Source: Escherichia phage vB-Eco-KMB43. Taken from it: DNA of 64,000 nucleotides. Every line of letters begins with the position of its first letter. Within the stretch, counting starts at the first letter, position 1. This document shows positions 48,297-60,776 of the stretch, piece after piece. Where the stretch lies: the sequence record OR525698.1; one strand, 5' to 3'. The notes beneath the pieces were generated by a model. It saw only the letters and a list, made by a program, of their open reading frames with translations. It was not told where the DNA came from and did not search any database. The position numbers were made by a program, and so were the translations under genes.

Positions 48297-48582
48297 CTCG
48301 ATTCTCCATATTATGCAACATAACAAACTGTTGTGCGGCATATTCCCCCATAATAAAACACTGCTTAGAATCCATACATTTACTACGAGCATACATCTTC
48401 ATAATATGGGCATGAAATTTCTGGCTGGTTTCAATGGAAGGAGATATTTTGTTTACATATACTATCATTGCGCCGTCGAAATAATCAGTAAAGTCACCAG
48501 TTGGATCATATTGATCAGCACTGACACTTCCGACCGCAGTCAAGCATATTGCCGCTGTTAGAGTTTTACGAATAAATGACAT
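48280..48582 (-). CDS. secreted protein with signal peptide (100 aa)
   Basis: N-terminal signal-like MSFIRKTLTAAICLTAVGSVSA; TATAAATA late-promoter motif 34 nt upstream. Confidence 0.4.
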   Translation of the reverse strand: MSFIRKTLTAAICLTAVGSVSADQYDPTGDFTDYFDGAMIVYVNKISPSIETSQKFHAHIMKMYARSKCMDSKQCFIMGEYAAQQFVMLHNMENREHEIQ

Positions 48583-48615
48583 AAGTCATTCCCCCAGATT
48601 AAAAATATTCAGTTA

Positions 48616-48623
48616 TATTTATA
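48616..48623 (-). promoter_or_regulatory. T4-type late promoter motif TATAAATA
   Basis: 34 nt upstream of secreted-protein ORF start at 48582. Confidence 0.4.
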
Positions 48624-48650
48624 ATCTGGGGCTTTATTTATGATTAACTC

Positions 48651-49247
48651 TTATTTGGTAGTACCGTCAATAAAATGTTTACGACACACAGAAACATATT
48701 TATCCTCTGCACCAACTTCTATTTGAGCACCATCGCGAATAACATTACCATCTTTATCTACGCGAAGGACCATAGTCGCTTTCTTGCCACAATGACAAAT
48801 ACCCTTCATTTCGACCAGTTTATCAGCAAATGCCATTAATGCCGTAGATCCTTCAAATAGATTGCCCTGAAAGTCAGTGCGAAGGCCATAGCACAGTACA
48901 GGGATATTAGCATCATCAACAAGCGCACACAAGCCTAAAACATGCTCTTTAGTCATAAATTGGGCTTCGTCTACAAAAACTGCATCTGGACGCCATCGAT
49001 CCGGTCTACGCTTACCTAACGATTCACGATAAACCAAGTCGAAAAGATCATCCGATTTAGTGAAGGTGATCGCTGGAGCACTTAGGCCAATTCGGGAAAC
49101 GACTTCACTTTCTGAATCTCGATTATCAATCGCTGGCTTAAGAATTAATACTCGCATATCACGTTCGGTATAGTTATAAGCACTTTGTAACAGAGAAGTT
49201 GATTTGCCAGCGTTCATAGATGCATAGTAGAAATATAATTGCGCCAT
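48651..49247 (-). CDS. tk: thymidine kinase
   Basis: 198 aa; near-identical motifs to T4 Tk (AMNAGKS, VFVDEAQF, YGLRTDF, CHCGKKA). Confidence 0.9.
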   Translation of the reverse strand: MAQLYFYYASMNAGKSTSLLQSAYNYTERDMRVLILKPAIDNRDSESEVVSRIGLSAPAITFTKSDDLFDLVYRESLGKRRPDRWRPDAVFVDEAQFMTKEHVLGLCALVDDANIPVLCYGLRTDFQGNLFEGSTALMAFADKLVEMKGICHCGKKATMVLRVDKDGNVIRDGAQIEVGAEDKYVSVCRKHFIDGTTK

Positions 49248-58971: not shown

Positions 58972-59157
58972 TCAGAAATATGCAATATAGTTTGCCAGTC
59001 CTACAGAGTCATCATTCGGCATTGCTTTTACCGCCAGTTCAAACCCTGCTTCAACTTTCTGTTTAGCGGATTCTTCGTTATAACCCCAGATGACCAGAAT
59101 AGCTACTACGTTTTCTTTGCTTACTGCTTTCAGTGCTTTAGTGATGCGACGTGCCAT
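58972..59157 (-). CDS. hypothetical protein (61 aa)
   Basis: small ORF with promoter cassette upstream. Confidence 0.3.
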   Translation of the reverse strand: MARRITKALKAVSKENVVAILVIWGYNEESAKQKVEAGFELAVKAMPNDDSVGLANYIAYF

Positions 59158-59203
59158 AATTTGATTCTCCGTTTAAGAAAGCGTGTTTCGTTTCGATGGG
59201 TGT

Positions 59204-59232
59204 ATTATGCTATAGGCGTGATCTGGTGTCAA
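59204..59232 (-). promoter_or_regulatory. early promoter (TTGACA, 17 nt, CATAAT)
   Basis: downstream of terminator 59254-59286. Confidence 0.5.
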
Positions 59233-59253
59233 CAACTTTTTTAAAAAAATTTT

Positions 59254-59286
59254 AGGCAATAAAAAAGCCACTCCGAAGAGTGGCTT
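59254..59286 (-). terminator. rho-independent terminator closing the ORF-free stretch 59287-59434
   Basis: GCCACTC-TTCG-GAGTGGC hairpin then TTTTTTATT. Confidence 0.6.
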
Positions 59287-59434
59287 ATAGGGAAGGTAGC
59301 GAATCTTCCTTGTCTCCAACCTGCTAGCGGCCTAGCAAGTGAATGCTTTAGCGTACCGGATCACCCCATACGCTGTAATAAATGCGGCTAGGTGACGTCC
59401 AAATCATTCTAACCGCGCTGTCTTTAGTTCACTA

Positions 59435-59653
59435 TTATTTATATCGCTTTCTCTCGCGACGTTTTTGATCTTCTTCCTTGATAGAGTTAAACGCATCAAA
59501 AAGACACATGACACTGATAATGAACATAACCGTATTTTCTACGATATCCCACGGCTTCGCATCAGTACAGATCCCCCAAACGGTAAGAAATGCAAATAGT
59601 GCAGAAGAGATCACAAGCATGATACTTGCTAAGATATAAAAAGTCATTTTCAT
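59435..59653 (-). CDS. small membrane protein (72 aa)
   Basis: two TM helices, basic C-terminus. Confidence 0.3.
   Translation of the reverse strand: MKMTFYILASIMLVISSALFAFLTVWGICTDAKPWDIVENTVMFIISVMCLFDAFNSIKEEDQKRRERKRYK
59436..59443 (-). promoter_or_regulatory. T4-type late promoter motif TATAAATA facing an ORF-free stretch
   Basis: overlaps stop codon of ORF 59435-59653. Confidence 0.35.
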
Positions 59654-59844
59654 GGTTTTACCTCAATTCTTCGATATTCATCACACATCCACGCAGTAAG
59701 CAAGAATCCCAGCACATAAGCAACAAAATACGTTAATGCTTCTTCTGGTTCGGTGCTATGCGCCATCATCAGACCAGCGAGAAAGGTCTTAACAATTACA
59801 TTTAAAATAATTAGCCACGCAAATAATTTCATCGTTTGCCCCAT
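59650..59844 (-). CDS. small membrane protein (64 aa)
   Basis: two TM helices. Confidence 0.3.
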   Translation of the reverse strand: MGQTMKLFAWLIILNVIVKTFLAGLMMAHSTEPEEALTYFVAYVLGFLLTAWMCDEYRRIEVKP

Positions 59845-60068
59845 TTCGGTCGAGTCTTTTCAAACTTATACATCCCGTAACAATCTCGAATCATCCACGT
59901 AACAAGAGCACCAGTCAACACAGACAATACACAGAAGAAGTAAAACGGTCCGGTTGCATTATCAACATGAGCAAGCCAGGTAAAGAAAACACATGCTAAG
60001 AATGTGAAGAACATCATAAAACACAAGAAAGCAAAATATTTTATGCTACTCATAGCGCCACCATACAA
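59829..60068 (-). CDS. small membrane protein (79 aa)
   Basis: two TM helices. Confidence 0.3.
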   Translation of the reverse strand: MYGGAMSSIKYFAFLCFMMFFTFLACVFFTWLAHVDNATGPFYFFCVLSVLTGALVTWMIRDCYGMYKFEKTRPKWGKR

Positions 60069-60156
60069 CAGATCATAAGAAAACCCAACGCAATAAGAAT
60101 TGCATCAAATTTAGTGAACTCCGGTCCACATATCAACATCATTCGTTCCTGTTCAT

Positions 60157-60399
60157 TCATAGATCACAGAGCCATCTTAAAGCACCACATAAAGCGAGCA
60201 GAATACTAGGTATAAACGAGATCAAAACAAGTTTGCAAAAATCATCTAAGGTAATACCGGAATAGATACCAACTGTAACAACACCGATCATCAGACACAG
60301 AAAGAAAACAAATGCAATCAGAAACAAAGTATTGCTAAACAGTTTAGTGATCATTAGACACCCCACGACGATCAATTTCAAAAACTTTTTTATCATCAA
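60157..60399 (-). CDS. small membrane protein (80 aa)
   Basis: two or three TM helices. Confidence 0.3.
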   Translation of the reverse strand: MMIKKFLKLIVVGCLMITKLFSNTLFLIAFVFFLCLMIGVVTVGIYSGITLDDFCKLVLISFIPSILLALCGALRWLCDL

Positions 60400-60547
60400 C
60401 GAAGCATGTCACAACTGCCTCGTTGACTTCCGCAAATTGTTGTGTTACCCACTTAAGGTCAGAGCGAAACAATGTTCTATTAATAACAAATGTTTTACCT
60501 TTCTTATCCATACCCATAAATTTTGCTTTAACCATATCCAATTCCAT
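60344..60547 (-). CDS. hypothetical protein (67 aa)
   Basis: small ORF. Confidence 0.3.
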   Translation of the reverse strand: MELDMVKAKFMGMDKKGKTFVINRTLFRSDLKWVTQQFAEVNEAVVTCFVDDKKVFEIDRRGVSNDH

Positions 60548-60553
60548 ATTATC

Positions 60554-60715
60554 ACCTTATTTGCTAATCGCTAAACCCAATCCGAAGAGAGCACCCGATG
60601 CTACAGTATACCCGAAAGTTTCAAAGGCAGTAAAGATATCTAAGCCGCCAGCTAACAGAGTTGCAGTAAACAGAGTACCAGCTACGAACATAAAAGTTTT
60701 ACCGATAAATTTCAT
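60554..60715 (-). CDS. small membrane protein (53 aa, below ORF-track cutoff)
   Basis: hand-translated MKFIGKTFMFVAGTLFTATLLAGGLDIF...; AGGAGAATCAAA RBS. Confidence 0.3.
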
Positions 60716-60747: not shown

Positions 60748-60776
60748 ATCTTACTACCCCCGTTTCATGTTGTCAA
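60748..60776 (-). promoter_or_regulatory. promoter-hairpin cassette (TTGACA; TAAGAT in loop of GGGGGTA/TACCCCC stem)
   Basis: same architecture. Confidence 0.45.

Follow-up and report, generated by a model that had tools for sequence, protein, structure and literature searches.

The question raised by this locus is what, if anything, is encoded between the small gene ORF72 and its downstream neighbor ORF61 in the 64,000-nt stretch of Escherichia phage vB-Eco-KMB43 DNA analyzed here (the window). A preliminary description had proposed a candidate small RNA, running from a late-promoter motif to a terminator. The window is 99.6–100% identical to genomes of the genus Krischvirus (RB49-like phages). 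In phage ECD7, the intergenic distance at this position is 275 nt; among the gaps truly free of ORFs in the 16 kb of annotation surrounding the locus, none is larger, and the PeSL-type gaps of the same region measure 66–110 nt. The features of the interval and its flanks are as follows.

59435..59653, minus strand: ORF72, a 72-aa small hydrophobic protein (PHROG 15168), with its stop inside TATAAATA
59436..59443, minus strand: perfect T4-type late-promoter motif TATAAATA, overlapping the TAA stop of ORF72 (59437-59435)
59429..59437, minus strand: tandem in-frame stops TAA TAG TGA ending ORF72, read from the sequence
59259..59430, minus strand: predicted RNA of ~172 nt, spanning the late-promoter start through the U-run, based on fold, constraint and covariance model
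59259..59286, minus strand: intrinsic terminator found by terminator scan, a 9-bp stem AAGCCACUC-UUCG-GAGUGGCUU (59286-59265) followed by U6
59158..59258, minus strand: promoter half of a PeSL cassette, with an AT-rich spacer, a sigma-70-type early promoter, and the ORF61 leader with its Shine-Dalgarno sequence
58972..59157, minus strand: ORF61 (DUF7421), the downstream gene, with its own promoter

The order of genes around the locus is gene 1, 57A, 57B/Acb1 ... dmd ... ORF72, RNA candidate ... endolysin, and the counterpart interval of phage T4 reads 1, 57A, 57B, ipI, tRNAs, rnaD, rnaC ... e. Like T4 rnaC and rnaD, the candidate is located between 57B and the lysis gene. The synteny with T4 that the preliminary description remarked on was essentially right, but its placement of the stretch upstream of 57B was wrong, as the candidate comes after 57B when read in the direction of transcription. 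The neighborhood is a hyperplastic, recombining region (PMC2839356). ORF72 is its most variable gene (79–100% nucleotide identity) and as an anchor is confined to Krischvirus; 311 blocks of public assemblies are indexed as containing the exact ORF72 protein.

ORF72 is also the last gene of an early operon that contains dmd. The operon promoter lies near 60776, and no other minus-strand terminator is predicted between 60776 and 59286. The sequence 59259..59430 is both the predicted RNA and the 3' UTR of the transcript from the early operon, and the two share a single intrinsic terminator (59286-59265). This terminator, previously described as clean and followed by a U-run, was recovered by the terminator scan as a hairpin with a T6 run, and it is annotated as a terminator in GEC-3S and G2248; the T-run that follows it varies from 5 to 7 T among relatives. 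Downstream of the hairpin come an AT-rich spacer, a sigma-70 promoter (TTGACA at 59232-59227 and CATAAT at 59209-59204, an 11/12 match) and a Shine-Dalgarno sequence, as in the PeSL (promoter-early stem-loop) cassettes defined in RB49 and phi1, for another of which terminator activity has been tested (PMC2839356). PeSLs are repeated elements of ~100 bp, and here the PeSL description applies to 59286-59158 only. The 148-nt body at 59434-59287 is single-copy, lies outside the cassette and is not part of the PeSL definition; an RNA gene goes unmentioned in the PeSL paper (PMC2839356).

At the other end of the interval, the perfect TATAAATA that had been reported to overlap the stop of ORF 59435-59653 is present at 59443-59436 on the minus strand. 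The rule that places the motif at -13 to -6 (PMC1524935) predicts a late-promoter start at the G at 59430. The motif is not enriched in the window (two copies vs 5.95 expected) and therefore by itself proves nothing; it is uncommon, though, for a perfect copy to fall only a few bases from where the stretch begins, and the other copy in the window lies ~27 nt upstream of a gene start, as expected of a working late promoter. Among 25 distinct variants, 24 have the motif intact, and the remaining one, L015, has lost it by deletion and kept the RNA body. The motif at this locus is not among the published RB49 late-promoter predictions. Read as codons it is TAT AAA TAA, and a change from TATAAATA to TACAAGTA is synonymous for Tyr-Lys with the stop retained.

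The ~148 nt (59434-59287) between the motif and ORF72 stop on one side and the terminator on the other contain no conserved ORF. To this extent the earlier account of an ORF-free stretch of ~150 nt holds, but a 48-aa ORF with a TTG start and a 19-aa ORF with an ATG start do begin inside it. The 48-aa ORF (59319-59173) runs through the terminator, the T-run and the next promoter, and indels among relatives, in the T-run and in the loop of a hairpin designated H2 below, frameshift both internal ORFs; neither is credible as a gene. In the loci examined directly, the only gene calls within the interval are short ones in four records, which either span the terminator and promoter or are placed on the other strand, and several GenBank records carry spurious CDS features that extend over the RNA, the terminator and the promoter that follows. 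An intact gene at this position in a related phage, which the preliminary description had named as evidence against an RNA, was searched for, and no conserved gene occurs in 58 genomes or in the directly examined loci.

The body has a strand-specific fold. On the minus strand it folds with z = -3.10 and none of 200 shuffles does as well, and z reaches -4.67 when the terminator is included; on the plus strand z is -0.77 and 43 of 200 shuffles do as well. Five consecutive hairpins, H1 to H4 and the terminator, are predicted on the minus strand only, and RNAalifold gives the same hairpins. The four that precede the terminator are listed here.

59384..59416, minus strand: hairpin H1, with outer stem GCGGUUAG/CUAGCCGC, inner stem UGAU/GUCA and loop UUGGAC
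59350..59374, minus strand: hairpin H2, with a 7-bp lower stem, a 3-bp upper stem and a variable loop of 3-5 nt
59315..59343, minus strand: hairpin H3, with core CUUGCUAG-GCCG-CUAGCAGG (59339-59320) and a weaker lower extension
59291..59309, minus strand: hairpin H4, with a GGAAG/CUUCC stem and an invariant 9-nt loop AUUCGCUAC

The H1 stem is invariant in 24 distinct sequences, with one change in the loop, and supplies no covariation evidence for or against this hairpin. The TGCTAG/CTAGCA hairpin picked out in the preliminary description exists, with the loop GCCG on the transcribed strand; the loop quoted there was the plus-strand reading. The H3 core is likewise invariant, and its lower extension, which sequesters the UUGGA of GGUUGGAGA, is broken in two singletons (kaaroe and MIZ6). 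Part of the H4 segment can alternatively pair with the 5' end (helix P1): the minimum free energy structure uses P1 and the centroid uses H4, and the transcript from the late start forms H4.

The RNA candidate is carried by all 58 Krischvirus genomes and by ~15 metagenome contigs. The covariance model finds one copy per genome, scoring 214–232 bits, and no second copy of the body exists in the window. Divergence of the body from the window is 2.1–5.6%, against 6.2–21.3% at four-fold sites in neighboring genes of the same contigs (binomial P for slower change of 2e-2 to 2e-7 per lineage), and the body changes about 3-4 times more slowly than the silent (synonymous) sites of neighboring genes. 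At the level of sequence comparison, purifying selection on the body is supported. The region is mosaic and some nearby genes are as little diverged, ORF108 having 2–8% four-fold divergence, as low as the gap, so that part of the low divergence could be due to recent exchange of a block.

Substitutions within the helices are compatible with the predicted fold. Standard pairs make up 99.8% of pair cells, vs 28–46% when the partners are slid, and every substitution in a core stem keeps pairing on the minus-strand RNA: G-C to G-U to A-U, A-U to G-U (twice), G-C to G-U, and G-U to G-C or A-U. The G-U intermediates would read as A-C mismatches on the plus strand. The variation in H2 involves pairs 64-87 (GC/GU/AU), 63-88 (AU/GU), 66-85 (GC/GU) and 73-78 (GU/AU/GC), together with a loop length that varies by -1, 0 or +1, and H4 has one A-U to G-U change. 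Altogether, 38 of the 44 modeled pairs never vary, one changes on both sides and four have wobble-compatible one-sided changes, all but one (in H4) being in H2. The shuffle control reached the observed covariation score in 2–4 of 500 cases and the pair-count measures in 91–154 of 500. The loops and most linkers are near-invariant, as are the stems, and the changes cluster in one loop (H2). The earlier suggestion of a structured non-coding RNA gains from the non-coding character of the stretch, the strand-specific fold and the signs of purifying selection, with covariation support limited to one hairpin.

Our preferred reading, which we advance tentatively and on comparative grounds, is that a structured non-coding RNA of ~170 nt, specific to Krischvirus, is encoded on the minus strand of the interval. 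The RNA would first be made as the 3' end of an early polycistronic transcript, which would start at the promoter near 60776, cover ORF52, dmd and five genes for small membrane proteins up to and including ORF72, and stop at 59265, with the terminator hairpin and U-tail providing a stable 3' end. Late in infection, the RNA may also come alone from the gp55-type TATAAATA (59443-59436), with a start near 59430. Bacterial 3'-UTR small RNAs of the DapZ and MicL type are transcribed from a promoter of their own within the end of the upstream gene, whose terminator they share, and the late-promoter route would be the same arrangement. Points of likeness are a promoter motif over the last codons of the upstream gene, a body wholly within the 3' UTR, the use of the mRNA's intrinsic terminator and U-tail as the 3' end, and a size in the range of ~100-300 nt; the difference is that those RNAs have a host sigma-factor promoter, whereas the promoter here is a candidate phage gp55 late promoter. 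The near-invariance of loops and linkers alongside the stems suggests sequence-specific recognition by a protein or RNA partner rather than a mere structural plug, and we think that a stable trans-acting or protein-binding small RNA is the most likely mode of action.

A bolder version of this reading, that the RNA acts on the host or on phage timing, is a long shot. The RNA could then be a late decoy or sponge for a host RNA-binding protein or a defense ribonuclease, or a regulator that switches off early messages. If true, no trans-acting RNA of a T4-type phage would have been assigned a function before it, and the shared position would offer a way into the question of why T4 retains RNAC and RNAD there. 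A 2010 review noted that for T4 there was as yet no functionally characterized riboswitch or trans-acting regulatory RNA (PMC3014915), and a 2022 omics study still described the functions of RNAC and RNAD as unknown (PMC9697503). The element described here offers, within the tRNA-less RB49 group, a clean non-coding candidate that is structured, conserved and present in a single copy; RB49-like phages grow readily and feature in phage-therapy cocktails.

The competing explanation that survives best, though we consider it unlikely, is that the stretch works only in cis as a 3' UTR. The stack of hairpins would protect the dmd-operon mRNA from 3'-to-5' exonucleases, aid termination or insulate the next PeSL promoter; TATAAATA would be incidental and there would be no function in trans. 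The stretch certainly forms the early operon's 3' end, attenuation by PeSL stem-loops is known from these phages (PMC2839356), and both the retention of the body in L015 and the missing entry in the RB49 late-promoter list are as a cis-only role would have it. The length and pattern of conservation fit less well. The other PeSL junctions need only their 66-110 nt in total, so that 148 extra nt are unnecessary for termination, and the terminator hairpin alone should guard the 3' end. A structural role also predicts free covariation and variable loops, whereas the loops and most linkers of this body are near-invariant.

Less probable again is that the gap is a functionless leftover, either a decayed gene or a spacer, which travels with ORF61 in a recently exchanged block of low divergence and whose hairpins are fortuitous. 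Recombination in the hyperplastic neighborhood (PMC2839356) and the strong variation in divergence from gene to gene are consistent with such a history, and most stems, being without variation, cannot be tested by covariation. Within the supposed block, however, the four-fold sites of ORF61 have diverged by 7–17% and the gap by 2–5%; ORF61 has zero amino-acid changes among relatives, yet this much four-fold divergence, and its homologs also occur in T1-like phages, there without the RNA. A leftover would also leave the better-than-shuffle fold on the minus strand only, the pairing kept by all core-stem changes and the concentration of changes in one loop to coincidence. No gene or recognizable gene fragment stands at this position in any relative examined, and the body has no match in E. 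coli genomes.

An element acting at the level of DNA, whether a set of palindromic protein-binding sites with CTAG or a signal for recombination or replication, is very improbable. Related CTAG(G)CCGC motifs occur in H1 and H3, and H3 is a perfect DNA palindrome. On the other hand, the helices contain several G-U pairs and have changed by way of G-U; in a cruciform, or on the opposite strand, these would be mismatched as A-C. The fold signal is also confined to one strand, and the body is not repeated elsewhere in the genome.

We give hardly any weight to the idea that the element is a degenerate tRNA or a diverged homolog of T4 rnaC or rnaD at a syntenic position, which is largely refuted at the sequence level. 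In its favor, T4 RNAC (species 1, 139 nt) and RNAD (species 2, 119 nt) are small non-coding RNAs of the same gene1-57A-57B...lysin interval, reported as late RNAs of unknown function (PMC3014915; PMC9697503). The parallel with stable RNAs C and D in the preliminary description stands as far as the interval, from 57B to the lysin gene, is concerned, but no sequence or covariance-model similarity goes with it. BLAST detected no similarity to T4 rnaC, rnaD or tRNAs, the covariance model was blank in the T4 interval, and local alignments to rnaC, rnaD and eight T4 tRNAs were no better than those of shuffles (fraction 0.37–0.44 for rnaC and rnaD). The T4 RNAs lie inside a tRNA cluster, next to tRNA-Arg, and T4 rnaC has a GGUUCGAAUCC T-loop-like sequence; the RNA here has its own terminator and no tRNA features. 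ARAGORN found 0 tRNA or tmRNA genes in the window and the Rfam tRNA model gave no match, in agreement with the failure to fit a canonical cloverleaf by eye, and no tRNA-clan match appeared in 59100-59600 at E up to 10. There is no T-arm or acceptor stem, and the element has its own terminator instead of tRNA-type processing. A 10-nt match, CGGUUAGAAU, to the D-loop region of E. coli tRNA-Asp (uncorrected P ~0.03) was treated as chance. Finally, it is extremely improbable that the stretch encodes a micro-protein, whether the 19-aa MIWTSPSRIYYSVWGDPVR or the annotated ORF of 47-48 aa: the ATG lies inside the invariant H1, so that the first 14 codons are conserved, and a CDS is annotated here in a few genome records, but there is no Shine-Dalgarno sequence, the differing H2-loop lengths change the C-terminus or lengthen it, a T-to-M replacement occurs in one lineage, and the longer ORF has the non-ATG start and the course across terminator, T-run and promoter noted above.

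Searches beyond these candidates place the non-coding RNA proposed here within a single genus. Rfam 15 families gave 0 matches at the gathering threshold over the whole window, the best sub-threshold score being 23.9 bits against a threshold of 100. The Rfam families EF3314_EF3315, RNAI and STnc100 are, like the element here, runs of hairpins ending in a terminator and scored 19.7–23.9 bits; membership in them was rejected, as their gathering scores are 47–100 bits and the generic terminator and hairpins carry the matches. Comparison of the gap with 50,697 phage records by blastn returned only the 58 Krischvirus copies, the rest being short terminator-like matches, and with a wider query the matches in Proteus, Salmonella and other phages covered the sigma-70 promoter segment only. 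Pattern scans recovered two loci in IMG/VR, two in JGI metagenomes and none in GTDB genomes, and neither blastn nor the pattern scans found a homolog outside Krischvirus. The literature yielded nothing relevant on small RNAs or transcriptomes of Krischvirus or RB49.

Possible partners were also considered. A duplex scan of 113 translation start regions in the window gave no signal (best energy -41.0, vs -39.9 +/- 2.3 for shuffled RNA). A role as a CsrA sponge was rejected, as the four GGA motifs in ~180 nt, where about three are expected, are not an enrichment. A RegB site was also envisaged at the unpaired GGAG in GGUUGGAGACAAGG, but this fits only ~4 of the 7 downstream positions of the RegB consensus, and the H3 extension pairs part of it. 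The RNA candidate is located in the same region as the counter-defense genes acb1 (57B) and dmd.

Over the 551 bases around the body, an unannotated stretch of ~148 nt on the strand that carries all genes of its neighbourhood, identity is 99.6% with Escherichia phages FL04, W115 and pEJ01 and 99.5% with ECD7, all members of Krischvirus, the RB49 group of the Straboviridae; for the gap sequence alone, identity with ECD7 and FL04 reaches 100%. The arrangement given in the preliminary description (late-promoter motif, body, terminator) is correct, and every element lies on the minus strand as read:

Features of the locus, in the direction of transcription
59653-59435, minus: ORF72, a small hydrophobic protein, 3' end ...CGA TAT AAA TAA TAG TGA
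59443-59436, minus: perfect T4-type late-promoter motif TATAAATA, read from the sequence
59434-59287, minus: body, ~148 nt
59286-59265, minus: terminator hairpin AAGCCACUC-UUCG-GAGUGGCUU, then six T
TTGACA 59232 and CATAAT 59204, minus: AT-rich tract, then sigma-70 promoter, 11/12 match
59157-58972, minus: ORF61, 3' of the sigma-70 promoter

Because ORF72 ends in CGA TAT AAA TAA, TATAAATA overlaps its stop codon; the gene is closed by tandem in-frame stops of all three kinds, TAA TAG TGA (59429-59437, minus). The same terminator is annotated in the GEC-3S and G2248 records, and the promoter in GEC-3S too. In RB49 and phi1, the PeSL (promoter-early stem-loop) cassette has a stem-loop and, 3' of it, an early promoter, and terminator and promoter activities have been shown experimentally for other copies (PMC2839356). 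The terminator and promoter 3' of the body are an ordinary PeSL, and the 148-nt body ahead of the stem-loop is the portion without a prior explanation. Within the 16 kb annotated around the body in ECD7, the junction holding it measures 275 nt, as against 66-110 nt for PeSL-type junctions, and is the largest that is truly ORF-free. Several independent metagenome contigs carrying the locus (L004, L009, L010, L011 and L012) stop ~170-250 nt past the ORF72 stop (equivalent to window ~59190-59265), at the terminator and AT-rich promoter, consistent with repeated PeSL sequence interrupting the assemblies.

Two small ORFs begin within the body: a 48-aa ORF with a TTG start, which crosses the terminator, T-run and next promoter, and, by our own reading, a 19-aa ATG ORF inside predicted hairpins H1 and H2. 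Both frames are broken by differences among 25 distinct variants, in which H2 loop length changes by -1, 0 or +1, the T-run holds 5-7 T and the AT tract is variable. The stretch had been called ORF-free, which holds in that it contains no credible gene but not in the literal sense. No gene was called in the body interval on the metagenome and genome contigs examined, and none of the 58 Krischvirus phage records has an intact gene at this position, which upholds the non-coding claim at the point where a relative could have contradicted it. Short CDSs are annotated in GenBank for Delraymugoa (L002, 982-1128), UPWr_E1 (L025, 535-678) and FL20 (L003, 1046-1138); that of FL20 is on the opposite strand and the others span the terminator, T-run and next early promoter (equivalent to window ~59173-59320). 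These CDSs cross regulatory signals, are not credible and are likely gene-caller artefacts.

Both the gap and ORF72 were found in exactly 58 phage records each, every one a Krischvirus, with one copy of the candidate RNA per genome; in a wider query, matches outside Krischvirus were limited to the promoter segment, and no copy was found in GTDB genomes or E. coli genomes. IMG/VR (L004), a metagenome pattern scan (L015, L016) and contigs encoding ORF72 relatives of 83-93% identity supplied copies that are more divergent. The downstream ORF61 (DUF7421, 61 aa; 58972-59157, minus) is a small ORFan common to unrelated phage families: homologues of ~75-80% amino-acid identity occur in many T1-like (Drexlerviridae) coliphages of ~50 kb, and the candidate RNA was not found in T1-like phages having ORF61.

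Each divergent contig was compared with the window at four-fold sites of the neighbouring genes and across the 143-nt body:

Divergence from the window by contig (four-fold sites; body)
L004: 21.3%; 5.6%
L008: 19.6%; 4.9%
L028: 13.4%; 3.5%
L010: 12.4%; 2.1%
L016: 11.7%; 2.1%
L013: 9.5%; 2.1%
L015: 6.2%; 2.1%

The binomial probability of so few body changes at the four-fold rate ranges from 2e-2 to 2e-7 per lineage, and without the apex of H2 the body diverges by 0.8-3.8%. Directly upstream, ORF72 is the most variable gene (four-fold divergence 22-56%); directly downstream, ORF61 shows zero amino-acid changes across Krischvirus variants and four-fold divergence of 7-17%. The body therefore shows a rate of change 3-4 times below that of the silent sites flanking it, in a mosaic region where some nearby genes diverge as little as the gap (e.g., ORF108, 2-8%) and where recent block exchange could lie behind part of its low divergence.

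The minus strand of the body folds at -47.6 kcal/mol (z = -3.10; 0/200 shuffles as good), versus -37.7 kcal/mol for the plus strand (z = -0.77; 43/200), and the body with its terminator reaches z = -4.67. In the predicted late-start transcript (59430-59259, 172 nt) the fold is a row of five hairpins, an architecture that three divergent variants share; RNAalifold gives the same helices. Helix P1, an alternative pairing of the 5' end with the H4 loop region, is invariant among the variants. Across 24 distinct sequences, standard pairs fill 99.8% of pair cells, as against 28-46% with partners slid; 38 of the 44 pairs are invariant, and almost all informative variation lies within H2:

Pair variation
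H2 pair 64-87: G-C (21 sequences), G-U (1), A-U (2)
H2 pair 63-88: A-U or G-U
H2 pair 66-85: G-C or G-U
H2 upper stem, closing pair: G-U, A-U or G-C
H4: a single A-U to G-U change

The core stems contain zero pair-breaking changes, and a weak lower extension of H3 is broken by two singletons. The G-U intermediates are compatible with RNA from the minus strand but with neither a cruciform in the DNA nor RNA from the plus strand. The covariation score was reached by 2-4 of 500 shuffles and the pair-count measures by 91-154 of 500, so that covariation support is real but thin. The earlier proposal of a structured non-coding RNA is partly supported. H1 (59384-59416, minus) and H3 (59320-59339, minus) carry a related motif, CTAGCCGC and CTAGGCCGC, and the tetranucleotide CTAG, usually scarce in E. 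coli and in phages infecting it, occurs three times within ~75 nt.

The tRNA and RNA-family scans that the preliminary description had suggested were run: a search of the whole window with ARAGORN turned up no tRNA and no tmRNA, and Rfam 15 gives no match at gathering thresholds. At E <= 10 there are only weak hairpin-plus-terminator resemblances, such as EF3314_EF3315 (23.9 bits, threshold 100) and RNAI (22.8 bits, threshold 47). The candidate RNA is outside every curated RNA family.

Going upstream on the minus strand, the first promoter-like site is at 60776 and precedes ORF52 and dmd; no minus-strand terminator is predicted between 60776 and 59286, so that the body would be at least the 3' end of an early dmd-operon transcript. 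The same operon includes six consecutive small hydrophobic ORFs (36-80 aa; 59435-60715, minus) around and after dmd, predicted membrane proteins belonging to PHROGs of unknown function. Whether the body has a separate late transcript depends on the putative late promoter TATAAATA. In its favour, only two perfect copies occur in the 64 kb, versus 5.95 expected, and the other precedes a gene start by ~27 nt, where a real late promoter would be expected. The copy at the end of ORF72 is intact in 24 of 25 variants. This octamer at -13 to -6 is nearly sufficient for T4-type late promoters (PMC1524935), which puts the predicted late start at G 59430. Counter to this, the octamer merely equals the codons Tyr-Lys-stop, and the site is not among the 17 late promoters predicted for RB49. 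In L015 (MAVA01000028.1, 3330-3400; equivalent to window 59425-59470), two nt added in an A-run and a 14-nt deletion have rewritten the ORF72 C-terminus (…KNVARES*), with TATAAATA and the tandem stops lost and the RNA body intact. The second TATAAATA (48616-48623, minus) sits within a CCCCAGATT...AATCTGGGG hairpin (region 48581-48660) and resembles a late promoter contained in a stem-loop; the gene whose ATG follows encodes a signal-peptide, rI.-1-like protein.

In the best-supported model, the candidate would be a stable structured RNA that is released from the early operon transcript or shares its 3' end, and that is possibly expressed again late. Recognition by a partner would be sequence-specific, a proposal based on loops and linkers that vary as little as the stems. 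The main rival gives the body a role at the 3' end purely in cis. A late regulatory or counter-defence RNA seems improbable. A duplex scan against 113 translation start regions in the window did not outperform shuffled controls. By our own count, GGA motifs show no enrichment in the candidate RNA. Because regB is present, the GGAG of GGUUGGAGACAAGG could be a RegB site under the known rules (PMC3014915); it is a poor fit to the extended consensus and partly paired. The body is a credible and easily tested candidate in phages from which hardly any functional small RNA is known.

The gene order here is gene 1 (dNMP kinase), 57A, 57B/Acb1, two ORFans, dmd, five small membrane ORFs ending with ORF72, the candidate RNA, ORF61 ... 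endolysin; that of T4 is 1, 57A, 57B, ipI, trna.4-.2, eight tRNAs with segB, rnaD, rnaC, e.8 ... e. From this shared order, the candidate sits in the interval where T4 has its tRNAs and stable RNAs, as had been suspected. BLAST, the candidate covariance model and local alignment against shuffles gave no similarity to T4 rnaC, rnaD or tRNAs. One stretch of 10 nt matches E. coli tRNA-Asp in its D-loop region; the match was taken as chance (uncorrected P ~0.03). RB49 is reported to lack tRNA genes (PMC1524935). We class the candidate as a small or 3'-UTR RNA encoded by phages of a single genus; in position it is like T4 RNAC and RNAD, and in layout like bacterial 3'-UTR small RNAs with a promoter in the upstream gene's end and a common terminator.
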